DNA from: an uncultured archaeon
GTDB lineage: Archaea > Aenigmatarchaeota > Aenigmatarchaeia > QMZP01 > JAFGSV01
Direction: 5' to 3'
Length of the DNA: 19,316 nt
NCBI GenBank assembly: GCA_964559215.1
Contig: CAZLFZ010000024.1
Location: 1 to 19,316 of the forward strand
Both the position numbers and the translations under genes were made by a program. Positions 2 to 18,520 of this stretch are shown here, in pieces. The notes below the pieces were generated by a model, which ran no database searches, was not told the origin of the DNA, and was given only the letters and a program-made list of their open reading frames with translations. Each line of letters starts with the position of its first letter. The stretch's first letter is position 1.

Positions 2-185
2 TCCCGAGGGGGAGATTTGAACTCCCGACCTATCGGTCTCTCTCGAGCGACTGCGTTTGTCAAACACACTCATAAGACCGTTCATTCATCACAGTGTGCT
101 CGCCTTTAGCCGGCATGGAAGTGTTGCATCTTTTTCCACTTCCATTCCAACAGCCGATCGCTCTAATCCACTGAGCTACCTCGGG
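2..185 (-). tRNA. intron-containing tRNA, probably tRNA-Tyr(GUA), with a ~110-nt intron
   Basis: The reverse complement reads CCCGAGG-TA-GCTC-AGTGGATTA-GAGC-G-ATCGG-CTGT(T)..[intron]..AGA-CCGAT-AGGTC-GGGAG-TTCAAAT-CTCCC-CCTCGGG-A. Acceptor, D, anticodon and T stems all pair perfectly. The C1:G72 pair plus A73 is the archaeal/eukaryal tRNA-Tyr identity set. Joining 5' CUGU to 3' AGA gives the canonical Tyr loop CUGUAGA, which puts the intron at 35/36. A canonical 37/38 splice would instead give CUGUUGA (GUU, Asn) with an atypical G37. The intron contains two internal hairpins. Confidence 0.7.
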
Positions 186-269
186 GCTGTAATAGATTAT
201 AACTAATAATGCTTAAAAATTTAATGTGAATCGTGTTCGCAGAGATTAGGTGTGGCAGGTCCGGGATAT

Positions 270-2283: not shown

Positions 2284-2316
2284 TCAAATTTATTTCCTTT
2301 GCCGCAAATATTACTA

Positions 2317-3168
2317 ATGCTCGGCTTAATTTTGCTCGTTGTTGGAATAGCGGGGTTTGGCCTAGGGGGGTATCTGGATTTGCGCTACACGGAGTTCCCT
2401 GACTGGTTGCCATACTCCATGATAATCCTGGCGCTTGTGACAAGAGGGGTTTTTTCTTTCATCATGAACGATTTCTCAATCCTGACCAATTCGATTTTAA
2501 TCGGTTTGGGGTTCCTAGGATTTGGCCTGTTGCTTTATTATGGCAGGCAGTGGGGGGATGGCGATGCCTGGATGCTGGGCGCTCTCGGTTTCCTGTTCCC
2601 GGATGCGACCGGATTTGCGCCTGTTGTTGAAAGCGTGATACCCTTTTCAATGACCATGTTTTTCAATTTTTTCATGACATCTCTTTTTTACCTCATTTTT
2701 TATGCTGTTGTGCTGGGTCTTAGGTCGCCTAAGGTGTACGAGACCTTCATCAAAAACCTCAGGGGCAATGTGAGAAGAATTGGTTCGGTATTCTTTGCTT
2801 TGTTGACCGTATCGTTATTATTCACCATCTATTTCGGGCAGCTATTATCCATACCTGTCTACGATTTTTCCGGCATACTTAGCATACCTGTTTTGGCGGT
2901 GCTTATACTCCTGTTCTTCCAGTACGCCAAGGCCGTGGAATCAGACCTGTTCAAGAAAAAAATTCAAGCGAAAGAGCTTAAGGTGGGAGATGTTCTGATA
3001 GCGGACAGGTGGAGGGGCCTCACGGAAAAAGAAGTTGAGCGGATGAAAAAGAAAGGCAGGCAGGTCTGGATAAAGGAGGGTGTGCGCTTTGCCCCTGTTT
3101 TTATAATCTCCCTCATCGTCACGCTTTTTTACGGATTCTTGGGTGGGCTGCTGTTCCCGGTTCTCTAG
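2317..3168 (+). CDS. type IV prepilin / preflagellin peptidase (A24 family, PibD/FlaK/EppA-like)
   Basis: It is a polytopic membrane protein with two Asp motifs at PibD/FlaK-like spacing: GGYLDLRY, and WGDGDAWM (GxGD) about 62 residues later. The track ORF starts at TTG 2299; ATG 2317 (MLGLILLV) is more likely. Pilins carrying class III signal peptides are encoded at 9321-10488. Confidence 0.7.
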   Translation: MLGLILLVVGIAGFGLGGYLDLRYTEFPDWLPYSMIILALVTRGVFSFIMNDFSILTNSILIGLGFLGFGLLLYYGRQWGDGDAWMLGALGFLFPDATGFAPVVESVIPFSMTMFFNFFMTSLFYLIFYAVVLGLRSPKVYETFIKNLRGNVRRIGSVFFALLTVSLLFTIYFGQLLSIPVYDFSGILSIPVLAVLILLFFQYAKAVESDLFKKKIQAKELKVGDVLIADRWRGLTEKEVERMKKKGRQVWIKEGVRFAPVFIISLIVTLFYGFLGGLLFPVL

Positions 3169-3223
3169 TGCGTTAGCATGCCTTATAATTTTTCAGAATC
3201 ACAATCACAAAATCAGATAAAAA

Positions 3224-3289
3224 GATATAGTAAAAAATAAATAAAATAAAAAAGAAGTCTTGCGCCAGACTAGGCTTAGAACTTCTTTA
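3224..3289. terminator. bidirectional terminator region between the convergent peptidase and MC1 genes
   Basis: The oligo-A/T tract at 3224-3248 is an oligo-T on the minus strand right after the MC1 stop. A 7-bp inverted repeat (AAGAAGT at 3251-3257 and ACTTCTT at 3283-3289) lies beside it. A T-run (AATTTTTC) follows the peptidase stop. Confidence 0.3.
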
Positions 3290-3560
3290 CTCTGTCAACG
3301 CCGGCTTTGCTCACAACTGGCTTTTTGACTTTCGCTGGCAACCATGATGGCCTGTTAGCAGGTGCGCTGATTACCTTAACGGAACCCTTGAACTTGTGGA
3401 TGGAGTATGTCCCGTCCTTGTTTCTCCTGCCCCTCTCTCTGAGCTTTATGTCACCGAAGCCTCTAGCTGCAGCCTTGAGAGCAGCCTGTCGTGGTGATTT
3501 CCCTGTAAATACGTGCTTCTTACTGCCGACTTTCATTTCATAGTATTTTTTTCCTGCCAT
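3276..3560 (-). CDS. archaeal chromosomal protein MC1
   Basis: The 94-aa basic protein carries VFTGKSPRQAALKAAARG, LRERG, HKFKG and APANRPSWLPAKVKKP, closely matching my memory of Methanosarcina MC1 (FTGKQPRQAALKAANRG...LRERGTKK...APKNRPAWMPEKISKP). A GGAGGT Shine-Dalgarno sits 6 nt upstream of the ATG. Confidence 0.85.
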   Translation of the reverse strand: MAGKKYYEMKVGSKKHVFTGKSPRQAALKAAARGFGDIKLRERGRRNKDGTYSIHKFKGSVKVISAPANRPSWLPAKVKKPVVSKAGVDRVKKF

Positions 3561-3671
3561 GTTTATACCTCCTGATAAATTTTCAATATAACTATATTCC
3601 CCTGCTTTATAAATGTTACGCTTGATGTTTATTTCGGATTAAGAAGTAACAAAAAACAATACAAAAGCAAA

Positions 3672-3689
3672 CGCATGAGCGTTTATGAA
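3672..3689 (-). terminator. hairpin plus T-tract downstream of the epimerase gene
   Basis: AAACGC-ATGA-GCGTTT is a perfect 6-bp stem. On the minus strand it is followed by GCTTTTGTATTGTTTTTTG, a T-rich stretch immediately after the stop at 3703. Confidence 0.35.
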
Positions 3690-3702
3690 AATAAAACCGG
3701 AA

Positions 3703-4590
3703 TCATCCGAGGCCAAGATACCATTCCACCATCCGCTTGACTTCGCGCCTGAAATCGGCTTTTGGCCTGTATCCGAGCTCTTGTTCGGCTTTTTCTATGA
3801 CGTAGTGGCGGTTCATGGTGAGGACGTCGAGATAGGTTTTCATGCCTTTTAGCCTGGCGAGCAGATTCACCGCAAAGAACGGCATCCGGATGGGTTTTTT
3901 CCCGAGCAGCCTGACTATGGTCTCGGCAAAATTCACGAATGGAAGAGGCTCTTTGTCCGCTATGTTGTAAATGCCTTCCCCTTTACTGACAGCCAGTTCC
4001 AAGGCCTGGACCATGTCGGCCACATGGACCACATGGGTTTTGTTTTTTGTGTTCGGAATGGGGAATCCGTGCTCCAGCAACTTGAGATTCTTCTTCCAGC
4101 TGGGGCTTCCTTTGCCATAGGCAGGGGCTACCCTCAATATTACGTGATTGATCCTTGAATTCAGGATGAGACGCTCGGCCAAGGCCTTTGACTCACCGTA
4201 CGGTGTCCTCGGTGATAATGGATAATTCTCGTTGGCCTTCCCTATTATTTCACCATAGACCGAAACGGAGCTCGAGAAGATGAATTTCTCAACGCGTTTG
4301 CAGTGCTTGAGCAGGTTCTTCGTTCCGGCTGCATTGATTTCATATAGAACCGCCTTCGGCTTCAAGTAGGAGACCAGCCCCGCGAGATGCACCACTGTGT
4401 CAACACCCTTTAAGGCATTCCTCAGGGTTTCCGGTTTTGTTATGTCCCCCCTGATCACCTCTACTTTCGAAGAAAGGTCTCGGACGTCTTCGTCGGGGAG
4501 GCAAAGTATCTTTACATCATACCCCTTTTTGAGCAACCTCAGGGTGAGGTTCTTTCCAACAAAGCCCGTTGCACCAGTAACAAGCAGCAT
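3703..4590 (-). CDS. NAD-dependent epimerase/dehydratase (extended SDR family)
   Basis: The N-terminal Rossmann motif is LLVTGATGFVGKNL and the fold is SDR-like throughout. The track ORF extends to 4632, but the Met of MLLVTGATG at 4590 fits the family N-terminus. Confidence 0.7.
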   Translation of the reverse strand: MLLVTGATGFVGKNLTLRLLKKGYDVKILCLPDEDVRDLSSKVEVIRGDITKPETLRNALKGVDTVVHLAGLVSYLKPKAVLYEINAAGTKNLLKHCKRVEKFIFSSSVSVYGEIIGKANENYPLSPRTPYGESKALAERLILNSRINHVILRVAPAYGKGSPSWKKNLKLLEHGFPIPNTKNKTHVVHVADMVQALELAVSKGEGIYNIADKEPLPFVNFAETIVRLLGKKPIRMPFFAVNLLARLKGMKTYLDVLTMNRHYVIEKAEQELGYRPKADFRREVKRMVEWYLGLG

Positions 4591-4763
4591 AGATAAGTAT
4601 ATCTCGAGGACACATTTAAAAACTTGGGACATAATTTATTACAATGGACGGAAAGGTAAAGCGATACGTTCAAAGGATAATACCCAGAAAAAGGTACAAG
4701 GTAAAGATAGGCAAGGTTGAGAGATACATAAACGGTATTATTTCAAGTGGCCGGGGCGTGTTC

Positions 4764-5477
4764 ATGGGCCTCATAGACCCGGACAAGCAGAACCCGAACG
4801 AAGCCCTGCGACTTGCGAATACGATGTACGAGGGTGGCGCGGATGTTATAATGCTCGGAGGCTCCATAGGCGCCCAGGGCGTTGCGCTCGACGAGATGGC
4901 AAAGCTCATAAAGGAGAATGTCAGCATACCGTTGCATCTTTTCCCCGGCAACACCAGCAATATAACCAAATACGCAGATTCGACGTATTTCATGAGCCTG
5001 CTGAATTCAAAGAACCCTTACTGGATAACCGGGGCGCAGTCGCTGGGGGCGCCTATGATAAGGAAATACAAGATCGAGGCTATACCGACGGCTTACCTCG
5101 TCTTCGAGCCTGGCCAGACGGTCGGGTACATCGGGGAGGCCAAGCTGCTGCCCAGGGATAAGCCGGACGTGCCGGCGGCATACGCCATGGCCGCCCAGTA
5201 CATGGGGATGAGATTTGCCATTCTCGAATCAGGTTCCGGGGCACCAGCCCCCGTTCCGGTTCAGATAGTTTCTGCAATAAGACAGGTGTGCGACATAAAC
5301 ATTGTGATAGCCGGTGGGGTGAAAACACCGGAGCAGGCGAGAGAGCTCATACACGCCGGGGCGAGTTGCATTCATATTGGAACGAAGATCGAGGAAGACA
5401 AGAATCCATTGGAAAAGGTAAAGAAATTCGCAAAGGCCATACACACAAAGGCCAAGGCCAAGCAGAAAATAAAATAA
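4764..5477 (+). CDS. geranylgeranylglyceryl phosphate synthase (GGGPS/PcrB family)
   Basis: It carries GLIDPDK, IPLHLFPGNTSNI, FMSLLNSKNPYWITG and a C-terminal GG(V)KT region, all typical of GGGPS/PcrB (ether-lipid backbone synthesis). The track ORF starts at 4644, but residues 1-40 are a K-rich translation of the AT-rich promoter region, and ATG 4764 (MGLIDPDK) gives the typical ~237-aa length. Confidence 0.75.
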   Translation: MGLIDPDKQNPNEALRLANTMYEGGADVIMLGGSIGAQGVALDEMAKLIKENVSIPLHLFPGNTSNITKYADSTYFMSLLNSKNPYWITGAQSLGAPMIRKYKIEAIPTAYLVFEPGQTVGYIGEAKLLPRDKPDVPAAYAMAAQYMGMRFAILESGSGAPAPVPVQIVSAIRQVCDINIVIAGGVKTPEQARELIHAGASCIHIGTKIEEDKNPLEKVKKFAKAIHTKAKAKQKIK

Positions 5478-5495
5478 AGAAACGGCTGAATTCTT

Positions 5496-6452
5496 ATGAA
5501 ACTAAAAACTCTTGTCAAAAAGAAAAGGGATACACAATATTTCCTTTTTGGAGGAAAGGGCGGCGTTGGAAAGACGTCCCTGGCCGCAGCCGCAGCCCTG
5601 CATTTGTCCAAGGCCGGCTCGAAGGTCCTGCTCATTTCCACAGACCCCGCTCACTCGTTGTCGGATTCCTTCGAGACGAAAATCGGAGGGAAAGCCAAAA
5701 AGCTGAGCAAGAACCTGTTCGCTGTGGAGATAGAACCGAAATTAGCGATGCAGGAGTACAAGGCTCGGTTCATGCCGCAAATAGAGAAGGTAGAATACCT
5801 GCAGGGCCTTGGACTGGGAGACACGTTCGATATGATGGGAATGACCCCCGGCATAGACGAGATAGCCGCCATAGACAAATTCCTGCATTACATACAGTCA
5901 CCAGATTACGATGCGATGATATTCGACACGGCCCCGACAGGGCACACCCTGAGGTTTCTCTCCCTGCCCGACGTACTGGATTCATGGGTCGGCAAGATGA
6001 TAATGCTCAGGATGAGGCTGTCGGGAGTAACGAACCTTGTCAAGCGCTTCCTGCCTTTCGCGCAGGAAGATGAAAAAACAGACTCCGGACTTGAGCAGTT
6101 GCAGGCCATGAGAGCCAGAATAGCGCAAGCGAAAAAGATACTATCCAATCCAGACAAAACGCACTACAATCTGGTCATGATTCCCGAAGAGATGAGCATA
6201 CTCGAATCCGAGAGGTCCCTGGCTGTTCTGAGGCAGTACGGGATTCCGGTGCATGACATCATAGTGAACCAAATAATACCCAAAAATGTGCACTGCCCGT
6301 TCTGTAGCGAAAAGAGAAAACAGCAGCTTGTTCGGCTTAAAAGCATACGGAAAAAGTTCAGGGGATTCCCCATCCGGGAAGTCCAAATGTACAGGAAAGA
6401 GGTGAAGGGGTTCAAAATGCTGGAGACGGTCGGAAAAGAGATATTCCTATGA
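5496..6452 (+). CDS. ArsA/Get3-family P-loop ATPase (possible archaeal Get3 homologue)
   Basis: It has a deviant Walker A (GGKGGVGKTS), the switch/ArsA signature DTAPTGHTLRFL, and a CPFC pair near the C-terminus, like the Get3 Zn-binding CxxC. The gene lies 18 bp downstream of GGGPS on the same strand. Confidence 0.8.
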   Translation: MKLKTLVKKKRDTQYFLFGGKGGVGKTSLAAAAALHLSKAGSKVLLISTDPAHSLSDSFETKIGGKAKKLSKNLFAVEIEPKLAMQEYKARFMPQIEKVEYLQGLGLGDTFDMMGMTPGIDEIAAIDKFLHYIQSPDYDAMIFDTAPTGHTLRFLSLPDVLDSWVGKMIMLRMRLSGVTNLVKRFLPFAQEDEKTDSGLEQLQAMRARIAQAKKILSNPDKTHYNLVMIPEEMSILESERSLAVLRQYGIPVHDIIVNQIIPKNVHCPFCSEKRKQQLVRLKSIRKKFRGFPIREVQMYRKEVKGFKMLETVGKEIFL

Positions 6453-6685
6453 TGTCCGGTATCTCTGAACATTTCGTTTCCGAATAATGGATGTCTCCAA
6501 ATAACGATTTGCCCGAATAATGACGCTTTTACGCCTTACCAGTCTACACTAGTAGAGGCCCCACGGGTGGGAAAAATATCACTAAAGATAAATAGCAGCC
6601 CTGGATAAAATAGTTAACTATGCGGAGTGGAGATAACTTTAAATACCGCTTATACCTTCTATGTAGGATTGCAGTCCGATTTTCG

Positions 6686-6811
6686 CTGGATGCAAGGCTT
6701 AGCTCCTAGGGCCTTGCTTCGTCCCAGGTCCCTGCTGCCATATTAGGGCTGGAGGACGGAAGCCAAGAATTCCTATAACATAAGTTAGGACTGGCCCCTT
6801 GCATCCAGAAT
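6686..6811. ncRNA. candidate structured ncRNA (long imperfect hairpin) within a 785-bp ORF-free interval; class unknown
   Basis: GCTGGATGCAAGG (6686-6698) is perfectly complementary to CCTTGCATCCAG (6800-6811). Nested inside are CTTG-CTTC-GTCC / GGAC-G-GAAG-C-CAAG (12 bp with two bulges) and CCAG..CCC / GGG..CTGG. No ORF of 60 aa or more occurs on either strand between 6453 and 6991. Confidence 0.25.
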
Positions 6812-7237
6812 TCCAAAAAATCTCTCGTATCTATGTGGGTCATCTTTTAGGAGAAAAAGATTCATCCCCAAAATTAGTAGCACTTTGAGAAGAACAAAGT
6901 GATAGGGGATGCGTAGACTCCTGTACCTGCCACGACTCTTCTATTCATGGCCCAGCACATATGGTTTCTTTGCATAGTCTACAGATAATAATTAGCGCAC
7001 AAATATATAAACGTTTTCCTCTTCATGCCGGTTTTCGGATAATTTTTTTTCTATCTTTTGTTCTAAAATGGCCAAAAAATCTGGAAAAATATTCCAATCC
7101 AGATTTTTATTCCATTTTGAAAACAAACGCCTGATGAATTTTCTGTTACATTTCCCCGGCCCAAAACGTTCCCGGTTTTGGGTATTTTTTATGCCATTTT
7201 TTATCATTTTTTTATTAGTCCAAATCATTTAATACTC

Positions 7238-7927
7238 ATGCCTATAAAAGCCGTCTTGTTCGACCTTGACAACACGCTGATAGATTTCCTGAAAATGAAG
7301 AAGATGAGCTGCGAGGCCGCCATAACAGCCATGATAGACGCGGGATTGCCGATGAAAAAAGAGGCGGCTATGCGCGTTTTGTGGGACCTGTACGACGAAT
7401 ACGGGATAGAGTACAGCAAGATCTTCCAGCAATTCTTGCTTAAAACGCTGGGTTCGATAGACTGGAAGATACTGGCCAGCGGCATTATCGCGTACAGGAA
7501 TGTTAAGACCGGTTTCCTGGAGCCGTATCCGCATGTGATGCCCACGCTGCTCAAACTCAAAGAGCGGGGCTACAAGCTTGGCGTTGTCAGCGACGCCCCC
7601 AGGATGAAGGCCTGGCTGAGGCTGGCTGCGATGCATATTGCTGATTTCTTCGATGTTGTTGTCACGAAAGATGACGCTAATGGACATCTCAAGCCGCATC
7701 CGACGCCGTACAAGGCAGCCCTGCGCAAAATGGGTCTCAAACCTAAAGAGGTCATATTCGTCGGGGACAATCCGAACAGGGATATCCTGGGGGCCAAGCG
7801 ACTCGGAATCCAGACGGTCCTTGCGAAATACGGCGAGTGGACGAAGGCCAAAGGCAAGTCCCTGCGTCCCGATTACGAAATCAATGACGTCAAGGAGCTG
7901 CTGAAGATACCGGGCCTGGTCAAATGA
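7238..7927 (+). CDS. HAD-superfamily hydrolase (phosphatase-like)
   Basis: Motif I is FDLDNTL (DxDxT), with a downstream S/T motif and GDNPNRD (motif IV-like). The track start at 7178 adds a hydrophobic AT-rich leader; the Met of MPIKAVLFDLDNTL at 7238 is more plausible. Confidence 0.75.
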   Translation: MPIKAVLFDLDNTLIDFLKMKKMSCEAAITAMIDAGLPMKKEAAMRVLWDLYDEYGIEYSKIFQQFLLKTLGSIDWKILASGIIAYRNVKTGFLEPYPHVMPTLLKLKERGYKLGVVSDAPRMKAWLRLAAMHIADFFDVVVTKDDANGHLKPHPTPYKAALRKMGLKPKEVIFVGDNPNRDILGAKRLGIQTVLAKYGEWTKAKGKSLRPDYEINDVKELLKIPGLVK

Positions 7928-8289
7928 TATGGATATTGTCGCTGACGATAATATGCCTGGTTTTGCTGATTTTCTGGCTGGCAAGGTCCTACCTCAAGCT
8001 AAGAACAAAGCTGCTCGAGGCCTTGTCAAGGAAACAGAGCCTGAGCACCAAATACGGCAAGATGACGGAGCAGTTCATGCCCCTGCTGGACATGTACCCC
8101 TATGACGAGCATAACTTCAGGTTCTTGGGGAATCCCGTAGACGGCGTTCAGTTCAACCCTGACGGCATAGTGTTCGTTGAGTTCAAGGCAGCGGACAGCA
8201 GGCTGACCCCGGAACAGAAACGAATAAAAGAACTGGTCGGGGATAAAAAAGTGGGTTTCAAAGAGATAAGGATCCCGAAACCGGATTAG
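7924..8289 (+). CDS. membrane-anchored PD-(D/E)xK nuclease-fold protein (VRR-NUC-like)
   Basis: It has an N-terminal TM helix (ILSLTIICLVLLIFWLA). Then follows NPDGIVFVEFKAADSRLTPEQKRIKELV, which matches the VRR-NUC pattern PD..(E)xK followed by L(S/T)PEQK. The start ATG overlaps the HAD stop (ATGA). Confidence 0.5.
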   Translation: MIWILSLTIICLVLLIFWLARSYLKLRTKLLEALSRKQSLSTKYGKMTEQFMPLLDMYPYDEHNFRFLGNPVDGVQFNPDGIVFVEFKAADSRLTPEQKRIKELVGDKKVGFKEIRIPKPD

Positions 8290-8294
8290 CCAAT

Positions 8295-8747
8295 TCAATC
8301 AACGCTTATTCCGCCTTTGTCTTTCTGGGCTGCTTTTTCGTTGAGCTGTTGCAGCTCCAGACCTAGCTGGTTCATGGAATTGCCGATCTTTTCCATCTCC
8401 AGCTGCAGCTTCGTTTTCACCCTCGCGATCTCCTTTTTCCTTTCCCCTATGATCGACACGGCCTCTGGCAGTGTCTTGTTCGCCATTATGCCCGCGCCTA
8501 TCTCAACCATGAATTTGTTTTTATCCAGCAGCTTCCCATGACCGTAGCACCCCGCACCGAGATGGAACAGCGCCCCCGAGTCTTCCTTGACGCTTTTCAT
8601 CTCACGCAGCGCATTCTCGGTTATCTCAAGCTCGCCTAGCCTCGTTTCCAGCACCGTTCCCTGCTTCGCGAATTCTTCAAGCTGGTTCTGCAGAATCTGA
8701 TACACCAGCACCTTTTCCTGAATTTCCTTTTGTTTTTCATCCACCAA
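8295..8747 (-). CDS. pfdA: prefoldin alpha subunit
   Basis: The ~150-aa protein has N- and C-terminal coiled coils flanking two beta-hairpin segments (ALFHLGAGCYGHGKLL...FMVEIGAGIMANKTL). This is the alpha-class size and architecture. The start is TTG or GTG. Confidence 0.75.
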   Translation of the reverse strand: MVDEKQKEIQEKVLVYQILQNQLEEFAKQGTVLETRLGELEITENALREMKSVKEDSGALFHLGAGCYGHGKLLDKNKFMVEIGAGIMANKTLPEAVSIIGERKKEIARVKTKLQLEMEKIGNSMNQLGLELQQLNEKAAQKDKGGISVD

Positions 8748-8881
8748 TTAGACCACCACAATGTTCGAATACAATGCCAAGATATAATGGATTGTTATTT
8801 AGATTGTTATCTTAGTATATTAAAGCATTTAAACCCACAACAAACTCACAAAATCATTCAAAGAAAGTCCTTCAAAGCCAT

Positions 8882-9229
8882 TCACAGCATCTTTAGTCCC
8901 CCCGTGATCCTGTCTATCTCGTCCTCCCTCCACGGGCCTATACAAAGGGCCGTGACCGTCCCTGGTTTCACCTCCGTTCTTCCCGCATCCTTGATGAGCG
9001 CATAAGGCATCTTGGTTTTCTTCACTTTTTCGTACACCCCGAGCATCTCTTTGAGGGTTTTGACCTTGAGCACGACCTTTTTCGAGCCCCACGCCTCCCA
9101 TTCCAGCTGGGCCTCGAACGGGGACTGCTTGTAGGATTCAAGCGATGCGTGAGCGACCTGGGCGGCCAACTTCCCCTGGCTCAGCTTGAGATCGCGCCGG
9201 ACAACAATGACCTGCTTCCACATAACCAT
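8882..9229 (-). CDS. pth2: peptidyl-tRNA hydrolase, archaeal Pth2 family
   Basis: KQVIVVRRDLKLSQGKLAAQVAHAS...ALIKDAGRTEV...GTVTALCIGP is the characteristic Pth2 pattern. The Cys/Phe-rich N-terminal extension in the track ORF (to 9292) is likely not translated. Confidence 0.8.
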   Translation of the reverse strand: MVMWKQVIVVRRDLKLSQGKLAAQVAHASLESYKQSPFEAQLEWEAWGSKKVVLKVKTLKEMLGVYEKVKKTKMPYALIKDAGRTEVKPGTVTALCIGPWREDEIDRITGGLKML

Positions 9230-9320
9230 ATTTGAGCCGGTATATTTAAAAAAATAGAAACAACAGCGATTGCAAAAACCGCTACATGACACGAACGGAT
9301 TCGATCCAAAATCAAACGGC

Positions 9321-9803
9321 CTAAACTGTAGATCCGGTGACAGTGCCTATGTCGGTCTGTGAATATACTCCGCTGCCCTTTGTGTAAGTTACTGATACTA
9401 GTGTTGAATAACTGCTGCCCGCTGGGGTCAGAGCTACACAGTCGTCAGCGTCGGTGTACAACTCTATTGTGCCGCCAGCGCCAACCGTCCAAGGTGGAAC
9501 TACTGTCGAATTCAAGATAACATTTGGACTGCCTGTGGTGCCACACTCTGCCTTAACTTCGGTTATGCTTATCGAAGATCCAAGCGAGTTCTTCATTGTT
9601 ATGTTAAATTCCCCGGTAGTTGCGTAGTATACCCAGTCCGTTGGCTGTCCGATGTTCGCAAAACCGGTTGACCTTGTCCCTGTCCATGTCGCTGGGTTGA
9701 ACACTCCAAGAGCGTAGAGTGCTGCGGCCACTATGATCACTATCAGGATAGCCCATCCGTACGTCATCAAATACTCCATTGCTGCTTGTGCTTTCCTTTT
9801 CAT
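9321..9803 (-). CDS. type IV pilin-like protein with class III signal peptide (copy 1)
   Basis: The sequence is MKRKA|QAAMEYLMTYGWAILIVIIVAAALYALG: a basic leader, Q at +1, E at +5 and a hydrophobic helix, followed by a Thr/Ser/Gly-rich beta-rich domain. A TATA-like ATTATATA lies upstream. Confidence 0.7.
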   Translation of the reverse strand: MKRKAQAAMEYLMTYGWAILIVIIVAAALYALGVFNPATWTGTRSTGFANIGQPTDWVYYATTGEFNITMKNSLGSSISITEVKAECGTTGSPNVILNSTVVPPWTVGAGGTIELYTDADDCVALTPAGSSYSTLVSVTYTKGSGVYSQTDIGTVTGSTV

Positions 9804-10514
9804 ATTTATCTGTATATAATTGGCTGACCTTGTTTATAAAACGCAATGAAAAAAGACAATAGTCAATATCGGCGTCTCATTGCCTATTCCAAGATAATAA
9901 GGAAAAGGCAGGAATGCCCAGCCAAAGAAACAGAAATAATACTAAAACTGAAAAAATCAAAGAGTGTCCTATCCGGATGGATTTACTGTACTAATCCCTA
10001 TGGATTTAGACAGTGGAGCCTGTCACGGTTCCGGTGTCTGTCTGCATGTATGTTCCGCCCGCTTTCGTGTAAGTTACTGATACTAGTGTTGAATAACTGC
10101 TGCCCGCTGGGGTCAGAGCTACACAGTCGTCAGCGTCGGTGTACAACTCTATTGTGCCGCCAGCGCCAACCGTCCAAGGTGGAACTACTGTCGAATTCAA
10201 GATAACATTTGGACTGCCTGTGGTGCCACACTCTGCCTTAACTTCGGTTATGCTTATCGAAGATCCAAGCGAGTTCTTCATTGTTATGTTAAATTCCCCG
10301 GTAGTTGCGTAGTATACCCAGTCCGTTGGCTGTCCGATGTTCGCAAAACCGGTTGACCTTGTCCCTGTCCATGTCGCTGGGTTGAACACTCCAAGAGCGT
10401 AGAGTGCTGCGGCCACTATGATCACTATCAGGATAGCCCATCCGTACGTCATCAAATACTCCATTGCTGCTTGTGCTTTCCTTTTCATATTTATCTGTAT
10501 ATAATTGGCTGACC
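9382..10514. repeat. tandem duplication: a 448-bp identical segment (9382-9829 and 10067-10514) within two 685-bp-spaced pilin gene units
   Basis: Direct comparison of the two copies shows identity across the promoter-proximal region and about 145 N-terminal codons. The copies diverge only in the last ~15 codons and beyond the -30 region. Confidence 0.85.
10006..10488 (-). CDS. type IV pilin-like protein with class III signal peptide (copy 2, divergent C-terminus)
   Basis: It is identical to copy 1 over about 145 aa. The C-terminus is TYTKAGGTYMQTDTGTVTGSTV versus TYTKGSGVYSQTDIGTVTGSTV in copy 1. Confidence 0.7.
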   Translation of the reverse strand: MKRKAQAAMEYLMTYGWAILIVIIVAAALYALGVFNPATWTGTRSTGFANIGQPTDWVYYATTGEFNITMKNSLGSSISITEVKAECGTTGSPNVILNSTVVPPWTVGAGGTIELYTDADDCVALTPAGSSYSTLVSVTYTKAGGTYMQTDTGTVTGSTV

Positions 10515-10601
10515 CCCCTTATAAATGTTTATCTCGGGGATGTTTAAGCTCAAGGTGCCTGTTTATCTCAAATTTTTTACAACATCAGTTTATTGTGCCA
10601 C

Positions 10602-11459
10602 CTATCCTTTATCACTACCCGATATCTCACGCCTTTCCATTAACCTTGTAAACGGTTCGAAGATGAGCTCCGGTTTCTTGCCCCTCAGTATGATGTTCGC
10701 GTACAGGTGCGGACGTATGCGTATCTTCTTTTTGCAGTTGCCGGCCAGTCCCAGTTCCAGCCACCCGATTGAATCGAAATCGATTTCCCTCGGCAGCCTG
10801 AAACTGGCATCGGTGCCTGAGGCCCTCTTCGGCTCAACGTTCAGGATGGACATGGTCGCCGGCAGCAGCACCCTCTTCCCTTTTTTCAGATTTATTGCCA
10901 GGGAGGCGGAGCTGACCGAAACCGGTGAAAAGCTGTCGTTTACTATCTCGTACCTGATACGCACGTTCCGGATTTTTTTAATCTGATCCAGCCTTTCAAG
11001 TGCTCCGTACAGGTTCACCATCCTTATCCTGTCCGAGTAAAGCTGGCATCCGAGGATCCTGACGAAATCTATTCTGGGAACGTACTGGTCCAGCATCCTT
11101 TTCTGGAATTTGAGCTGCACGTAGATGACAACTATCAGAACGAGCAATAACAGCGCAATCAGGGAATTGAGGCCATTTGCATTCCCGGCGCTCACGGCCA
11201 TGATGAAGGCGAGCACTATTATCCCTGAGAAAAGCAGGGCCTCCGTATGCCTTGCCAGCTTTTTCATTCCGTACCACGCATCCTCGGCCGCATAGCGCGC
11301 TGACCGCCTCAGCCTGCTGAATTTGTGCCGGATGGGGTAAAAGCGGTCCCTGGTGCTCGGCAGTTTCTTGGCGTTGTGCCTGAGACCGTCATGCACCCTT
11401 CTTAACGCGTTCAGGATTTTCTCCCTGATGGACAGCCGCCGTCTTAAAGGGAAAAACAT
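10602..11459 (-). CDS. membrane protein of unknown function (Arg-rich N-terminus, 2 TM helices, ~150-aa C-terminal domain)
   Basis: The 285-aa ORF has TM helices at ALLFSGIIVLAFIMAVSAG and LNSLIALLLLVLIVVIYVQL. It lies on the same strand, directly upstream of the pilin pair. Confidence 0.45.
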   Translation of the reverse strand: MFFPLRRRLSIREKILNALRRVHDGLRHNAKKLPSTRDRFYPIRHKFSRLRRSARYAAEDAWYGMKKLARHTEALLFSGIIVLAFIMAVSAGNANGLNSLIALLLLVLIVVIYVQLKFQKRMLDQYVPRIDFVRILGCQLYSDRIRMVNLYGALERLDQIKKIRNVRIRYEIVNDSFSPVSVSSASLAINLKKGKRVLLPATMSILNVEPKRASGTDASFRLPREIDFDSIGWLELGLAGNCKKKIRIRPHLYANIILRGKKPELIFEPFTRLMERREISGSDKG

Positions 11460-11500
11460 AATATATTATTGCTCTTTTCATGTATTAATTATGATTAATT

Positions 11501-12310
11501 ATGTTGATTGTCTATTCCCCGCAATGCCTTGAATACGAAATCCCAGGCCATCCCGAAAGCCCGGCCCGGGTGCTAAGGATACACGATTTTCTCCTCGAAC
11601 ACGGGTTCAGATTCATTCCAGCGGAACCGGCGACGAAGCATGATGTCCTGCTTGTGCACACGGCGGAGCACTTTGCCAAGGTTGAAAGCAGGGATTACGG
11701 TGATATCGAAACACCTCCGATAGACATAAAATATCCCCTGCTTGCAGCCGGAGTAACGATAAAAGCCGCGGAAAATCTGGGGTTTGCCCTCACCAGGCCC
11801 CCGGGGCACCATGCAGGCCGGAATTCCCTGGGGGGCTTCTGCTACTTCAACAATGTTGCAATAGCGATAAAAAAACTCGGGAAGAAAACAGCGATTCTAG
11901 ATCTTGACACGCATCATGGAAACGGCAGCCAGGAGATATTCCTGGGTGATGAAAACGTCGTGTATGTCTCTCTGCACCAGTCGCCCCTTTATCCGATGAC
12001 TGGTTTGAGCTCGGAAAAGAACTGCCACAACTTCCCCATGTTTCCGGGCACGGACGAGAACACCTACCTGAAAACCTTGGAAAAGGCATCGGCGATCATT
12101 GGGAGGTTCAAACCGGAACTGTTGGCCGTTTCGATGGGGTTCGACACGTTCAAGGGAGACCCTCTGGCAGGGCAGCAGGTGACAGAAAAGGGATACGAAA
12201 GGATAGGGGAAATGGTCGGGGAGCTGAACCTGCCCACCTTCATAGCCCTGGAGGGCGGCTATTCGGATAAAATCGGTGAACTCTGTTATAATTTCTTGCG
12301 CCATTTCTGA
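11501..12310 (+). CDS. histone deacetylase / acetoin-utilisation (AcuC) superfamily deacetylase
   Basis: DLDTHHGNGSQEIF (DxDxHHGNG) and the catalytic-loop context PPGHHAG.....GFCYFNNVA are HDAC-family hallmarks. At 269 aa it is shorter than typical family members. Confidence 0.75.
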   Translation: MLIVYSPQCLEYEIPGHPESPARVLRIHDFLLEHGFRFIPAEPATKHDVLLVHTAEHFAKVESRDYGDIETPPIDIKYPLLAAGVTIKAAENLGFALTRPPGHHAGRNSLGGFCYFNNVAIAIKKLGKKTAILDLDTHHGNGSQEIFLGDENVVYVSLHQSPLYPMTGLSSEKNCHNFPMFPGTDENTYLKTLEKASAIIGRFKPELLAVSMGFDTFKGDPLAGQQVTEKGYERIGEMVGELNLPTFIALEGGYSDKIGELCYNFLRHF

Positions 12311-12508
12311 GTTCTGAGATTGGTTTTAAGATTTCCGGCCGCTGCAGCCTCGTGTCATACCAGTGGGAGTCAATGCAAAAAAGCTTATAAATCTATATTA
12401 ACCATTTTAAAGTGATAACATGAACGAGATGAAGGGAAAACCTGCTGGGCGGTTACCGATAAAGGAAGACTGGATTATTTGCATCGAGAGATTCTGTCTT
12501 CCCATTAT

Positions 12509-12805
12509 ATGCAGGACGACCCGGAATCAGGTGTTATCGGCGAGGCAACCCAGCTTCATAGAGAGACCAGGCAGCTAGGTGACAATACAGGTGACAATAC
12601 AAAGGCACACGAAGTGGTATTGCAAAGAGGTAAAAATGTCATGGGCATATTGGGATACAGGTCTGGCAGTGGTATCAGGCCCGGTTTTGATACAGATTAT
12701 GGGACCGCCCAATCTTTCGACATAGTAAATAGTGATGGAAATCCTGAAGCGGCATTGAATCGTGTGCTCAGGGATTTGCGGAAACACGACAGTAAGAAAT
12801 GTTAG
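12509..12805 (+). CDS. hypothetical small protein (weak call)
   Basis: The Gly/Asp/Asn-rich ORF overlaps an antisense ORF (12575-12871), and there is no recognisable domain. The 12311-13031 region is generally poorly coding. Confidence 0.15.
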   Translation: MQDDPESGVIGEATQLHRETRQLGDNTGDNTKAHEVVLQRGKNVMGILGYRSGSGIRPGFDTDYGTAQSFDIVNSDGNPEAALNRVLRDLRKHDSKKC

Positions 12806-13031
12806 ATTAACAGATTCGATGAATTCCCCATACGTGTTTAGCTCGTACAAACCAACAACTTTCAAAGGCATCGAAATAAAGTCAATCTGCCTTTAAAAAA
12901 TTCTGAAAATTAATAAGCGATAGCATAAGGCTTTTTATCGGTTTATTTCAAATTAGCCAGAGCACCATGATGTTTTGCAGGAACCAGCACACTGAATGCC
13001 CGTGGGGAGTAGCTAAACAAATACGATTCTC

Positions 13032-14108
13032 CTAGTCCTCTTTCCAGAAGAAGGTGTCCGTGCCCTTTATGTGTGACAGGAACTTGCAGGACTTCAGTAC
13101 CCCATGGACATCATGCTCATTGAATCCGAAGTCCTTCGCCACGGCCTTTTCAGCCACCACGAGCCTGCCCGATACCAGGTCGGCCAGGCGCTTCAACTTG
13201 GCATTGAAGTTATACGGCTCCTTTTTCTGGTTGAACCAGCCTGAATAGCCACGCGTGATCGGGTCGTTGATGTTGAAATAAAGATTCCCTTTCCTGGGCT
13301 CCACCATGTAAAGCGAGAAGCCCTTCTCAGAGAAGCGGTTAACGAAATTGACCAGGTCCAGCTTCGCCCCGTCGCTGACCAGCACAATCAGCTTGTATCC
13401 CTTATATTGCCTGGACAGCTTGTGCAGGTACGCCGTCAGGGAGTTCGCGTCCAGTTCAGCGGTTTCGCCAAATGATGTCACGATCACGGACGCCTTGACT
13501 TTGGACATGAACCACCTTTTTACCTTGATGGAGATCACGAACTCGCCGTTCTTTTTCTCCATCTTCGCATTGGCCTTGGACAGGAACTCCTTGGGCGTCC
13601 AGTCTATGGGACCAACCTTCCCGAGCCTCTTGTCCAGCCACCTGGCGTATTCACTGGTGTAGAATATCAGCTTTGCCATTCTCGAATCATCGGACTCTTC
13701 CAGCATTGCTCCCAGGTCCACCTTTATATCCTCTTCTTTGAAGAATTCCTTTTTCTTCGCCTCTTCCTCAGGGTGTCCGTAAACAGCGCGCGAGTGGTCC
13801 TTGCAGAACCTGTATTTCTTGACGTCCCAGCATTCCCTGCACAGCAGCTTGTCACAGCCAGACCACAGGCATTTCCCGGCCCAGTCTGTCCGTGAGCCTA
13901 TCTTCTTGTTACACCTTGAGCAGAACTCCATTTTATTCTCGGACAAGATTTCGTCGAGCTTGGCCTTTGCCTCAAGTTCCCTTTTCTCCACGTCCATCTC
14001 AAGCTCTTTTCTGGCCATCTCTATTTCTGACCCGAGCTTTCTCCCTTCGTTGTCAGCCTCTCCTCCCATTTCAGCCTCCAAGGGCATGCCTTCTTCTCTT
14101 GAAAACAA
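13032..14108 (-). CDS. Cys-rich zinc-finger protein with acidic coiled-coil N-terminus and an uncharacterised C-terminal domain
   Basis: The Cys cluster is FCSRCNKK..13..CLWSGCDKLLCRECW..FCKDH (C2-C2-C2-CH spacing). The C-terminal part IVLVSDGAKLD...E..K-like could be a restriction-endonuclease-like fold. The gene overlaps the upstream gene by 38 bp. Confidence 0.6.
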   Translation of the reverse strand: MFSREEGMPLEAEMGGEADNEGRKLGSEIEMARKELEMDVEKRELEAKAKLDEILSENKMEFCSRCNKKIGSRTDWAGKCLWSGCDKLLCRECWDVKKYRFCKDHSRAVYGHPEEEAKKKEFFKEEDIKVDLGAMLEESDDSRMAKLIFYTSEYARWLDKRLGKVGPIDWTPKEFLSKANAKMEKKNGEFVISIKVKRWFMSKVKASVIVTSFGETAELDANSLTAYLHKLSRQYKGYKLIVLVSDGAKLDLVNFVNRFSEKGFSLYMVEPRKGNLYFNINDPITRGYSGWFNQKKEPYNFNAKLKRLADLVSGRLVVAEKAVAKDFGFNEHDVHGVLKSCKFLSHIKGTDTFFWKED

Positions 14109-14571
14109 CCAGCAAATCGGATACGTATTTCTTGAGCAGGGCGCATCGTCTGACCATGGAGCCCCCCTTCCCGTGCATCACATTCTCCTGCATTTGCTCG
14201 AGTATTTTTGTCAGCTTGCGGCTGTTCCGCATGATGGTGACGTCGGCCTTCATAAGCCTGACAAATTTTTTGTAATCGGCCTTTTCGCCCCATACCAGAG
14301 GCAGCCCCAGTTCCAACAAGAAAACGTCAAGCCATTGCATAACGTCCTCGAGCGCCCCGGCATTGTCAAAATCCTCTTCCAGGTACGCGGCCTCTATCAT
14401 GGGAAAAAGGAAGTCCCTGGACTTGTTTATATCATCGGCGATCATGCGCCTGAATTGCTCATCGGTGCTCTCCGCCTTCTTTGGATCCTTGTAGCCGTAT
14501 CCTGGAACGGCCTTTTCCATCTCCTTGAATTCAGGCTTGCCTTCTCCTTTCGCTTTAACCCATTCGCTCAT
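14071..14571 (-). CDS. small acidic alpha-helical protein, paralogue of the adjacent 173-aa protein
   Basis: The 166-aa protein carries EEDFDNAGALEDVMQWLDVF, which resembles DAAEDAWDDVDSLVDMIE in its neighbour. The start is 1 nt after the upstream stop. Confidence 0.5.
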   Translation of the reverse strand: MSEWVKAKGEGKPEFKEMEKAVPGYGYKDPKKAESTDEQFRRMIADDINKSRDFLFPMIEAAYLEEDFDNAGALEDVMQWLDVFLLELGLPLVWGEKADYKKFVRLMKADVTIMRNSRKLTKILEQMQENVMHGKGGSMVRRCALLKKYVSDLLVVFKRRRHALGG

Positions 14572-14572
14572 C

Positions 14573-15094
14573 TCATTCCCCCGTGATTATTTTCTCCCTG
14601 GCATCCAGCAATGAGCTTATCCCATCGCTGTATTTTTTAATTTTGCCCAGGTTTTTAATAAAGTGCCTTTCCTTCCCTTTTTCGAGCAGCGCCCTGTAGA
14701 GCAGGTACACGGTCCTTTTCATGTCTTTCACTTCCATGACCAGTTGCCTGTCCCTTCTCAGTATGTTCTGGATGTCAGACTCTATCCTTTCTTTGCACTC
14801 CTCGCAGTATCGCTTGTTGCCTTTTAGCTTGGTGGTTTTGCTGTTTTCGATCATGTCAACGAGGGAGTCCACGTCATCCCAGGCATCCTCTGCTGCATCG
14901 CTGAGCTTGTCCCTCTGCAACTCGTAGCTCACCTGGACCACATGAAACAGGTAGTCCTTTATTTTTTTCATCTCGGCTATAAGCAATTCCCTTACCAGCT
15001 TGTCCGTTTTCACGATGTTGGACACGCTGGAATAGCTGTACTCAGGGACAAGGCTCTCCATCCTTTCCATGACATCAAGCATGTTCTCTTCCAT
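14573..15094 (-). CDS. small acidic alpha-helical protein (173 aa), function unknown
   Basis: The ORF is densely packed, with a 1-nt gap to the SPFH gene stop. It has a predicted helical/coiled-coil composition and a CEEC pair. Confidence 0.5.
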   Translation of the reverse strand: MEENMLDVMERMESLVPEYSYSSVSNIVKTDKLVRELLIAEMKKIKDYLFHVVQVSYELQRDKLSDAAEDAWDDVDSLVDMIENSKTTKLKGNKRYCEECKERIESDIQNILRRDRQLVMEVKDMKRTVYLLYRALLEKGKERHFIKNLGKIKKYSDGISSLLDAREKIITGE

Positions 15095-15095
15095 T

Positions 15096-16193
15096 TCACT
15101 TACCCGGCTTTCCAGACTTCTCCATCCTGACTTCCAGCTCAGTCTTTTGCTCCTCGTAGCGCTGCATGAGTTTTTTGAACGTTCCCTTGTCTATCTTCCT
15201 GTTTAAGAATTTTCGCTCGGTCGCTTTGATGATACGCTGCAGTTCGTCATACCTTTTTTCCAGTTTGCCCTTTTCGGCGGTGGGGAATGCCCCTTTCAGC
15301 GCATCAAGTCCAAGCTTTTTCCTCTCGGAGCCCCTGACGATTCGTTGCTTGTCATGTATCTCTTTTAGCTTGAGCGCTTCCATGGCGTCGCGCATGTCGT
15401 GCTGGGTTTCCTCCGATTCGATCTCCATTTCCGCCTCCCTTTTGACCCTTTCCCTTTCGAGCTCGTCCAGGACCTGCTCCCTGCTCTCAACGGTGCCCTT
15501 TATTTCCCCGACTTCCCTCTCATGAATCGCCTTCTCGGTTTCGAGTTCGAGTTCGGTCTCGGCCTTTTCCGTTTCCTCACGTATCACGCCCCGCTTTCTC
15601 AGGTAATCCTGGTACTCACCGGGCAGCACGAACTGCACCGAGAACGAGAGCAACTCAAGGCCACTAGGTTCGAGCTTCTTCCTGAGCCCGACCTCGGCGG
15701 ATACTTGGATCTCACGTCCCGTCTTCCTGTCTCCCTGCAACTGGTCTATGCTTTTTTTCTTTACGACCGGCGCCATGACAGATGTAACGATTTCGCTTTG
15801 CAGCTCTGACCATAGGTCCTCGTTAGTGATGACATCCTTCCTGCTCATCGTGGCGGAGCTCAGCTTATCCGGGTCAGCCACCACGAACTTCATCTCTACG
15901 GCAGCGATGATCTCCTTGTCATCACGTGTCCACAGGTCTTTCACCTCCCTCCTGATTACGTGAGGGGACTTGTCCACGAAAATGATGTTCCTGGCGGAAC
16001 CGGAGAACAAGCCACCCACCTTGTGTGTCCCGTGTTCGAATGTTCTCACGACCTTGCCTTCCTCCTCAAGGAGAGCCACTTCCCCGTCCAGAACATGGAT
16101 TTTCTTGCTTAGCAGGCCACCTACCTGGAAGGAGTTGATTCTCTGCGCCACGACTGCATCAGACCTCTCCCATTTCTTGGCCATGTTTATCAT
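15096..16193 (-). CDS. SPFH/band-7 (flotillin/stomatin-like) domain protein with long E/K-rich coiled-coil C-terminus
   Basis: The SPFH-like core is VIRREVKDLWTRDDKEIIAAVEMKFVVADPDKL...LQGDRKTGREIQ...GLELLSFSVQFVLP. This is followed by an ETEKAETELELETEKA...REAEMEIESEE flotillin-type coiled coil. There is no N-terminal TM helix. The likely start is M4 (16184), with TTTAAAATA about 25 nt upstream. Confidence 0.7.
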   Translation of the reverse strand: MINMAKKWERSDAVVAQRINSFQVGGLLSKKIHVLDGEVALLEEEGKVVRTFEHGTHKVGGLFSGSARNIIFVDKSPHVIRREVKDLWTRDDKEIIAAVEMKFVVADPDKLSSATMSRKDVITNEDLWSELQSEIVTSVMAPVVKKKSIDQLQGDRKTGREIQVSAEVGLRKKLEPSGLELLSFSVQFVLPGEYQDYLRKRGVIREETEKAETELELETEKAIHEREVGEIKGTVESREQVLDELERERVKREAEMEIESEETQHDMRDAMEALKLKEIHDKQRIVRGSERKKLGLDALKGAFPTAEKGKLEKRYDELQRIIKATERKFLNRKIDKGTFKKLMQRYEEQKTELEVRMEKSGKPGK

Positions 16194-16204
16194 TTATAGT
16201 CTTG

Positions 16205-16249
16205 TATTTTAAATTCATCCGAAGAAGAAATAAAAAACTTTAAAAAACT
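16205..16249 (-). terminator. oligo-T terminator-like tracts after the 575-aa gene, followed by the TATA box of the SPFH operon
   Basis: The minus strand reads GTTTTTTAAAGTTTTTTATTTCTTCTTC immediately 3' of the stop at 16250. Confidence 0.3.
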
Positions 16250-17977: not shown

Positions 17978-17997
17978 AATTATTTAATGGCAGAAAG

Positions 17998-18013
17998 GAT
18001 TATATTTATAGGT
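17998..18013. promoter_or_regulatory. shared AT-rich TATA element (GGATTATATTTATAGG) in the divergent intergenic region
   Basis: It lies about 24-33 nt upstream of the minus-strand start at 17977 and about 50 nt upstream of the plus-strand small ORF, which has its own AGGTGA Shine-Dalgarno 8 nt before the ATG. Confidence 0.3.
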
Positions 18014-18059
18014 GTTTTTGCAATTAATCGTAATTCATTTTGGCGCCTCAGGTGATTAT

Positions 18060-18176
18060 ATGGCAAAATACGAATGTCTCAAGTGCGGGTGGACTGGGAA
18101 GCCCCTTGTGATGCAGCCCGTGACGAGGGTCTGCCCAAAATGCGGCTCCGTGCAGCTGGAAAAGATAAAGAAATAG
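18060..18176 (+). CDS. small zinc-ribbon protein (38 aa), absent from the ORF track
   Basis: The sequence is MAKYECLKCGWTGKPLVMQPVTRVCPKCGSVQLEKIKK, with two CxxC pairs 20 residues apart. An AGGTGA Shine-Dalgarno lies 8 nt upstream. Confidence 0.45.
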   Translation: MAKYECLKCGWTGKPLVMQPVTRVCPKCGSVQLEKIKK

Positions 18177-18280
18177 CCGCCGACTTTTCCCACTCCTAGG
18201 GGGGGTTAAGGTTTTAAAACTTTTACCCTTCGTACTTTTATGATATATGATATATAATGCTAGGAGATTTAGGAGATAAT

Positions 18281-18520
18281 ATGCCAGAGACGTTAGAAAC
18301 AGACAGCTCGCTTAGAACATTAAGAGGTACTGTCGGCGATATATGTCAGGGTGGCAGGGCGTTTGACCTGTACACCAAGGGGATGTTTGACGACCCCGTA
18401 ACTGTTTATTTGAATGAGCCTGACCCGAGCTTGGCTGTCGGCAGGGAAGTCGAGGTTTCGATCGAAGAAATGGAAACGGGAGCCTGTGAAGTGAATGCGA
18501 AATCTATCAGATACGTGTAA
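18281..18520 (+). CDS. hypothetical small acidic protein (79 aa)
   Basis: GGAG lies 5 nt upstream of ATG 18281. The track start at 18257 has no Shine-Dalgarno. There is no recognisable motif. Confidence 0.4.
   Translation: MPETLETDSSLRTLRGTVGDICQGGRAFDLYTKGMFDDPVTVYLNEPDPSLAVGREVEVSIEEMETGACEVNAKSIRYV

Follow-up and report, generated by a model that had tools for sequence, protein, structure and literature searches.

The bulge-helix-bulge (BHB) splicing motif consists of two 3-nt bulges placed around a 4-bp central helix (H), with a further helix on either flank, h and h' (PMC3239211, PMC3978253). The multiple-intron pre-tRNAs of Crenarchaeota of the order Thermoproteales were predicted with SPLITS/SPLITSX. 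Ordered removal of nested introns from crenarchaeal pre-tRNAs was reportedly described by Tocchini-Valentini et al. in PNAS in 2009. In the Thermoproteales, BHB introns occur at canonical as well as at non-canonical positions of one gene, one intron has to leave before the next BHB can form, and related introns are found in different tRNA genes, suggesting transposition (PMC4033280, PMC4090602). The tRNA-Pro(GGG) of the DPANN archaeon ARMAN-2 has introns at 53/54 and 59/60, two within one loop (PMC3239211), and sequential removal was shown by experiment for multi-intron tRNAs encoded in the nucleus of a red alga, Cyanidioschyzon merolae, where the 37/38 BHB is always the last to be processed (PMC3728597, PMC3978253). 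The intron of euryarchaeal pre-tRNA-Trp, in turn, acts as a box C/D guide for Cm34 and Um39 (PMC4090602, PMC11408192).

In the window, as we call the whole 19,316-nt stretch of archaeal DNA analysed here, a minus-strand tRNA-Tyr gene belongs to this known class of multi-intron archaeal BHB-spliced pre-tRNAs. It shares the three features listed above for the Thermoproteales, but its host belongs to an Aenigmatarchaeota-like phylum of the DPANN, the two introns share the anticodon loop and are separated by 2 nt, with one of them splitting the anticodon, and a micro-exon supplies two of the three bases of the second motif's bulge. The likeness to ARMAN-2 extends to the DPANN affiliation, to two closely spaced introns in one loop, with a strict BHB motif here for the one that splits the anticodon, and to the many tRNA genes overlooked by standard tools, whereas the ARMAN-2 introns are located in the T-loop, 6 nt apart, and the ARMAN-2 endonuclease is of the epsilon2 type. 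What is unusual here is an intron inside the anticodon, exons of 2 and 4 nt, a predicted order of removal imposed by structure, a neighbouring gene with four introns and the rapid gain and loss of introns among close relatives.

A PcrB-family GGGP synthase and an ArsA-type ATPase are among the products of the archaeal genes carried by the window. The relatives closest to it are uncultured archaea, labelled in their annotation as Aenigmatarchaeota, Nanoarchaeota or DPANN. Given these archaeal genes and archaeal relatives, the relevant splicing system is that of an archaeal BHB-recognizing endonuclease; genes for the splicing endonuclease (EndA) and for an RtcB-type ligase were detected neither in the window nor in the retrieved loci. 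The gene order from 2299 to 19316 is strongly conserved in L007-L011 and L018, with genes for a peptidase A24-like protein, an MC1 chromatin protein, an NAD-dependent epimerase, GGGP synthase, the ArsA-type ATPase, a HAD hydrolase, a Holliday-junction endonuclease, prefoldin, PTH2, a histone deacetylase, a Band-7 protein and a TPR protein of 575 aa.

The tRNA-Tyr(GUA) gene is complete (2 to 185, minus strand), with a pre-tRNA body of 184 nt and a mature tRNA of 74 nt, CCA not being encoded. The initial annotation had recognized here a minus-strand tRNA with C1:G72 and A73 and had proposed a search with covariance models, which bore it out: read from 185 to 2, the sequence matched the Rfam tRNA family RF00005 with 51.8 bits (gathering score 29; E 9.5e-09) end to end over model positions 1-71, with a 113-nt insert in the anticodon loop. 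The 7-bp acceptor stem CCCGAGG/CCUCGGG pairs C1 (185) with G72 (3), the discriminator A73 is position 2, and the D and T arms are regular. The combination of C1:G72 with A73 is the archaeal and eukaryal Tyr identity set. A conserved TATA-like box lies upstream of the gene and a T-rich trailer downstream. The putative archaeal BRE/TATA element AAATTTTTAAGC (211 to 222, minus strand) is located about 26-37 nt upstream of C1, and TTTTTAAG is found at equal distance upstream of tRNA-Tyr in every orthologue; AAATTTTTAAGC is presumably a promoter, judging from the general features of archaeal promoters.

The anticodon stem is formed by AUCGG (158-154) and CCGAU (36-32). On the 5' side of the loop CUGU (153-150) is followed by UGG, and on the 3' side GAGAGAGA precedes CCGAU. 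Joining CUGU to AGA (39-37) produces the loop CUGUAGA, while joining at 37/38 produces CUGUUGA; among the possible joins, U35|A36 alone yields the Tyr loop CUGUAGA. When these hypothetical products were submitted to ARAGORN, CUGUAGA was called Tyr(gta) and CUGUUGA Asn(gtt), the latter with G37 beside U36, so that the wrong loop anticipated for a splice at the canonical position was recovered. The 74-nt product of the two-step splicing proposed below has standard arms and received the call tRNA-Tyr(gta), removal of both introns restoring a canonical cloverleaf. In two syntenic orthologues (L007 and L008), whose exons are the same as those of the window, CTGTAG is contiguous and a 66-nt intron is the only one, which fixes the identity as Tyr(GUA); the gene in the window is thus a tRNA-Tyr(GUA) and not an Asn(GUU), and the Tyr assignment already made from the letters holds on account of the loop, the call on the product and the contiguous CTGTAG of the orthologues. 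With default settings ARAGORN found no tRNA in the window. The same gene with both inserts recurs in three further independent assemblies (L005, L006 and L014), which excludes an assembly artefact.

We scored the hBHBh' geometry of every cut-site pair in the precursor. Exon 1 (150 to 185, minus strand) runs from C1 to U35 and comprises the 5' strand of the acceptor stem, the D arm, the 5' strand of the anticodon stem and C32, U33, G34 and U35; it is 100% identical to exon 1 of L007/L008, which there continues directly into A36 and G37. Intron 1 (106 to 149, minus strand), 44 nt long, interrupts the anticodon at the non-canonical position 35/36 and is bounded by a strict hBHBh' motif, BHB-1, at cuts 150|149 and 106|105 (H 4/4, h 2 and h' 2 plus a 9-bp hairpin). 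It consists of a hairpin (148-112) followed by GGCU (111-108), which pairs with G30-U33; the central helix comprises the pairs G:U, G:C, C:G and U:G, and the bulges are GU|U and AA|A. The join at BHB-1 gives CUGU+AGG..., which restores the GUA anticodon and leaves the second insert in place. The weak points of this motif are an outer helix h of 2 bp and the need for the anticodon stem to open. A search for further copies of intron 1 in 281 kb of sequence returned none.

Between the introns lies a micro-exon of 2 nt, A36 (105) and G37 (104), on the minus strand, delimited by the two BHB cut pairs and by the contiguous CTGTAG of L007, L008, L009, L010 and L018. It is followed by intron 2 (38 to 103, minus strand), 66 nt long, at the canonical position 37/38 and present in all orthologues, and by exon 3 (2 to 37, minus strand), A38 to A73, with the 3' strand of the anticodon stem, the variable loop, the T arm, the 3' strand of the acceptor stem and A73. 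In the unspliced precursor the canonical 37/38 excision scored H 3/4, h 5 and h' 0, whereas in the intermediate from which intron 1 had been removed the top-scoring BHB anywhere was the canonical 37/38 motif (H3, h5, h'5). This second motif, BHB-2, is composed of the anticodon stem (5 bp), CUGU:AGAG (3/4 pairs), the bulges AG|G and AG|A and CGAGC:GCUCG (5 bp), and its removal leaves the loop CUGUAGA. Its central helix carries one mismatch in every orthologue (G.G, G.A or U.U), with 3/4 pairs. BHB-2 is a relaxed rather than a strict motif and is predicted to form only after intron 1 has been removed.

These features revise the single intron of about 110 nt at 35/36 put forward by the initial annotation. 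The predicted junction U35|A36 holds, but only the 44-nt part belongs to it, with 66 nt at 37/38, and the figure of about 110 nt, which is right for the whole (149..40), is made up of two elements, the introns of 44 and 66 nt. The remark that 110 nt is long for an archaeal tRNA intron is likewise explained by 44 + 66, although 66 nt still lies well above the reported median of 15 nt for archaea (PMC3218864).

To locate orthologues of the gene in relatives with 77-87% protein identity, we used the GGGP synthase gene, which is conserved and lies at a distance of 4.5 kb; in all syntenic loci tRNA-Tyr lies downstream of the same DUF11/CLIPPER-like gene. A pattern scan of metagenomes matched only two near-identical strain variants (L005 and L006), owing to a fixed D-loop sequence in the pattern that differs in more distant relatives. 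Synteny was not retained in L012, L013, L017 and L019, and a match in L013, located inside a ThrRS gene, was spurious. The 35/36 (44 nt) and 37/38 (66 nt) introns occur together in the window, L014, L005 and L006, and L011 (5109-4934, minus strand) has a homologous 35/36 intron of 35 nt in addition to that at 37/38. L007 and L008, with exons identical to those of the window, contain only the 37/38 intron. The remaining orthologues combine the 37/38 intron with one at 58/59 (77 nt; L009, gene at 4457-4240, minus strand) or at 59/60 (31 nt in L010, gene at 5764-5593, minus strand; 33 nt in L018, gene at 5205-5032, minus strand), and all three have a contiguous CTGTAG. None of the four tRNA-Tyr genes of L009, L010, L018 and L011 was detected by Rfam at the gathering threshold.

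The 44 nt are missing from L007/L008 exactly between U35 and A36, at the borders predicted by the BHB scan, and the flanking bases fit no other placement of the insertion. The L011 intron is homologous to intron 1 of the window at both ends and has the same BHB geometry; in its central helix a G:U pair is replaced by G:C, and the hairpin tip is different yet paired. Intron 2 of L010 is identical to that of L011, L010 having a T-loop intron instead of the one at 35/36. In every orthologue the predicted cuts regenerate the same mature tRNA. L005/L006 differ from the window in the intron-1 hairpin at G142A and A146G, the former changing a G:C pair to an A.C mismatch; since L011 has U.C at this place, the pair at window position 142 is not strongly constrained.

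The window's contig ends one base past tRNA-Tyr, the sequence downstream of tRNA-Tyr differs between strains (L005 vs L014), and L007, L009, L010, L011, L014 and L018 have a 5S rRNA gene some kb further on from tRNA-Tyr. The final 14 nt of tRNA-Tyr, together with about 17 nt of its trailer, recur as direct repeats in L014 (5372-5359, 4361-4348 and 3038-3025), about 1.0-1.3 kb apart, and in L006 (6523-6510, 2063-2050 and 847-834); they look like att sites of small elements that may have integrated in tandem at tRNA-Tyr.

The sequence, its motifs, the precise borders of the indels among the orthologues and the product's identity are shown, while the splicing of this pre-tRNA, its order and the enzymes that would act on it are inferred from sequence, predicted structure and comparison. 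In the first step, the precursor would take up a conformer in which G30-U33 are paired to the GGCU located at intron 1's 3' end, placing the cut sites in 3-nt bulges flanking a 4-bp helix; the splicing endonuclease would then cut at 150|149 and 106|105, and a ligase would join U35 to A36. In the second step, A36 and G37 would form, along with the base that opens intron 2, the 5' bulge of the canonical BHB, and a second round of cutting and ligation would join G37 to A38 to give the 74-nt tRNA with the loop CUGUAGA. By constrained folding, the BHB-1 conformer has an energy of -67.3 kcal/mol against -68.9 kcal/mol for that with the anticodon stem kept; being only 1.6 kcal/mol above the latter, it should be accessible. 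Unconstrained MFE folds, in which the U35 cut site is buried in a helix, were misleading; their ACUGUG:CGCAGU helix is broken in four of six orthologues. BHB-2 is impossible in the primary transcript because its bulge A36-G37-G103 must adjoin U35, from which 44 nt separate it; it needs the first ligation, and removal of intron 1 should hence be obligatory before intron 2 can be recognized. Because the first ligation would attach A36 and G37 to exon 1, a free 2-nt exon would never have to be handled. The proposed order, with 37/38 last, is consistent with that of C. merolae, in which, however, each BHB folds independently and the order follows from stability, whereas the second BHB predicted here requires the first ligation. 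It also fits the ordered removal reportedly described for nested introns of Crenarchaeota (Tocchini-Valentini et al., PNAS 2009).

A complete two-step BHB solution was obtained for 5 of 20,000 shuffled inserts in a test devised after the pattern had already been noticed, whereas 6.3% of shuffled inserts offered a lone BHB at the U35 cut. A lone BHB at this cut therefore proves little, and the case is made by the combination of motifs together with the orthologues. On these grounds we consider it highly probable that the tRNA-Tyr(GUA) gene contains a 44-nt intron at 35/36 and a 66-nt intron at 37/38, with a 2-nt exon between them and a predicted ordered splicing.

A single 110-nt intron at 35/36, excised in one step by cuts at 150|149 and 40|39 through a relaxed motif, would give the same mature CUGUAGA, and there are archaeal endonucleases, that of one DPANN archaeon included, that accept relaxed motifs (hBH, HBh') for cleavage (PMC3239211). 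The BHB that the initial annotation expected around +37..+40 and +147..+150 is, however, essentially no motif, this cut pair scoring H 1/4, h 2 and h' 2, with neither bulge nor helix context at 40|39, and the orthologues show the 66 nt as a stand-alone canonical intron and the 44 nt as a stand-alone indel; we regard one-step excision as very unlikely.

Inactivation of the gene by the 44-nt insertion, with a functional copy elsewhere in the genome, is hardly plausible. The sequence examined amounts to about 30 kb of the genome, leaving room for a second copy, and the A.C mismatch in the intron-1 hairpin of L005/L006 would suit a pseudogene. Against this, a strict BHB falls precisely on the borders of the insertion, conservation of the exons is 100% among four assemblies (window, L014, L005 and L006), with identity to those of the relatives as well, and the promoter-like box and the trailer are intact. 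A homologous insert moreover persists at the same site in the more distant L011, with changes that preserve the BHB, and a neighbouring tRNA-Pro(CGG) gene has the same architecture.

A tRNA-Asn(GUU) containing a 110-nt canonical 37/38 intron, as called by ARAGORN when introns were enabled (-i), a program that does not evaluate splice motifs, can be dismissed, since the canonical BHB of the unspliced precursor lacks helix h' (H3, h5, h'0), G37 would adjoin U36 in the product, the features of the gene, C1:G72 and A73, are not of the Asn type, and orthologues with identical exons encode a contiguous GTA.

Two introns with ordered removal, the reading we prefer for tRNA-Tyr, have a counterpart in the tRNA-Pro genes next to it. 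The relatives carry one or two such genes between the DUF11-like and peptidase genes, and their tRNA-Pro sequences served as queries against the equivalent gap of the window. A tRNA-Pro(CGG) gene was found on the plus strand (1793-2047), in five pieces separated by four introns, located in the D-loop (1810-1848, 39 nt; H4, h1, h'1), at 33/34 (1868-1909, 42 nt; H4, h5, h'2), at 37/38 (1914-1933, 20 nt) and at 58/59 (1954-2032, 79 nt; H4, h2, h'7). The 33/34 and 37/38 introns enclose a 4-nt exon, CGGG (C34-G37, 1910-1913). The 37/38 motif scored H1, h1 and h'5 before removal of the 33/34 intron and H3, h5 and h'5 after it, so that in this model the canonical BHB is well formed only once the 33/34 intron has been removed, the same logic as in tRNA-Tyr. 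The order expected of a multi-intron pre-tRNA is thus found in the predicted structures of both genes, with h' going from 0 to 5 in tRNA-Tyr and H1, h1 becoming H3, h5 in tRNA-Pro(CGG). With all four introns removed, the sequence shows 100% identity to the tRNA-Pro(CGG) of L008 (6678-6752), a gene that has no introns. A tRNA-Pro(GGG) gene follows on the plus strand (2094-2283), with one 115-nt intron at 58/59 (2154-2268; H4, h3, h'8). Both tRNA-Pro genes of the window were missed by Rfam as well as by ARAGORN. Papers of 2011 and 2014 give three as the maximum number of introns per tRNA gene (PMC3239211, PMC4033280), a number that the neighbouring tRNA-Pro(CGG), with four, exceeds; a non-exhaustive literature search found no published report of four introns in one tRNA gene.

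The intron content of the three tRNA genes varies widely across ten loci. Pro(CGG) has 0, 1, 2 or 4 introns, and Pro(GGG) is either intron-free or interrupted in the T-loop by about 32, 64 or 115 nt. Two sublineages have the 35/36 intron of tRNA-Tyr and the relatives sampled nearest to them lack it, a patchy distribution that requires either lateral gain or loss on repeated occasions. The 58/59 introns of Pro(CGG) (1954-2032), of Pro(GGG) (2154-2268) and of the L009 tRNA-Tyr (4331-4255, minus strand) align as one family that shares TAAGCTTTTTG...CGCTGACGCAAA...GAGCTTGG. The occurrence of this family in three tRNA genes suggests, by sequence similarity, that introns may have transposed between genes, and the same pattern was read as intron transposition in the Thermoproteales (PMC4033280). 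In L005/L006 the D-loop intron of Pro(CGG) (gene at 7774-7474 of L005, minus strand) measures 86 nt vs 39 nt in the window. The 33/34 intron of these strains is 88% identical to that of the window and the exons 100%, indicating that introns diverge much faster than exons.

The 66-nt intron of tRNA-Tyr shows a different kind of conservation. Its six distinct versions align without gaps, and the pairing of 102-98 to 48-44 in helix h' holds for 100% of the alignment cells. GUGAU, CGGUCU(U/A)AUGAGUG(U/C)GUUUG and ACGCAGUCGCUCG are invariant or nearly so, and the 7 nt separating GUGAU from CGGUCU vary freely. On the minus strand, positions 66 to 97 can be drawn as a box C/D-like K-turn, with a stem (97-94 with 69-66), a 3-nt bulge (93-91), a C-like box GUGAUGA (92-86) whose first two bases are shared with this bulge, a 12-nt spacer (85-74) that includes the conserved CGGUCU (80-75) and a D-like box AUGA (73-70). 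The stem is paired in 100% of cases, with one compensatory change of A:U to G:C in L007, and each of the six versions has a spacer of exactly 12 nt. The C-like box reads GUGAUAU or GUGAUAA in relatives, and the D-like box is AUGA as against the CUGA of archaeal box C/D sRNA. The MFE-preferred helix ACUGUG:CGCAGU noted above, broken in four of six sequences, was dropped in favour of the K-turn stem. Covariation reached the observed level in 69 of 500 shuffles, weak statistics for six closely related sequences.

Read by eye, CGGUCU is complementary to A36-G41 of its own tRNA over 6 bp (7 bp in L007), compared with about 8 nt or more in guides, and the N+5 rule applied from the D-like box falls on C39. 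The element resembles the tRNA-Trp intron in being a long, conserved canonical intron with a putative C/D-like K-turn and a 12-nt spacer and in its conserved stretch complementary to its own anticodon arm, with N+5 pointing to position 39. It differs in its host, tRNA-Tyr, in having one K-turn and no C'/D', AUGA rather than CUGA, a complementarity of 6-7 bp and no Rfam family, and in a guide role that is predicted only. No UGA-containing box pair that could form a second C'/D' motif is conserved in the 3' half of the six intron versions, a permissive Rfam search of the region returned neither a C/D nor any other family, a scan of viral contigs for the intron-2 core gave 0 matches, and one archaeal tRNA modification paper makes no mention of Nm39 in tRNA-Tyr. 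That the 66-nt intron might serve as a guide or an L7Ae-binding element is, from its sequence, a hypothesis rather than a finding, and a tentative one.

Rather unlikely is a broader reading in which the lineage would harbour a mobile BHB-intron system and the 66-nt intron would be a minimal, one-K-turn C/D guide for 2'-O-methylation of C39 in its own tRNA. If this were true, the intron would be, to our knowledge, the second intron-encoded tRNA guide after that of tRNA-Trp and the first natural 'half-mer'. The mobile-intron part of this reading would mean that introns insert and exit on the timescale of species divergence, up to four per gene, with exons of 2 to 4 nt and an obligatory order of removal.

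For annotation, the genome would seem to be without tRNA-Tyr and two tRNA-Pro, the first being called Asn by ARAGORN and the Pro genes being missed; an 'incomplete tRNA set', the same kind of gap, has been reported for DPANN genomes (PMC5829648). For RNA processing, a 2-nt exon that provides two of the three bulge bases is a natural test of ordered, structure-gated tRNA splicing and of the tolerance of the endonuclease. For intron evolution, close relatives differ in single introns with base-exact borders, and one intron family is found in three tRNA genes. Reviewers in the field have sought 'snapshots of intron insertion' (PMC4033280), and the window and its relatives supply such cases.
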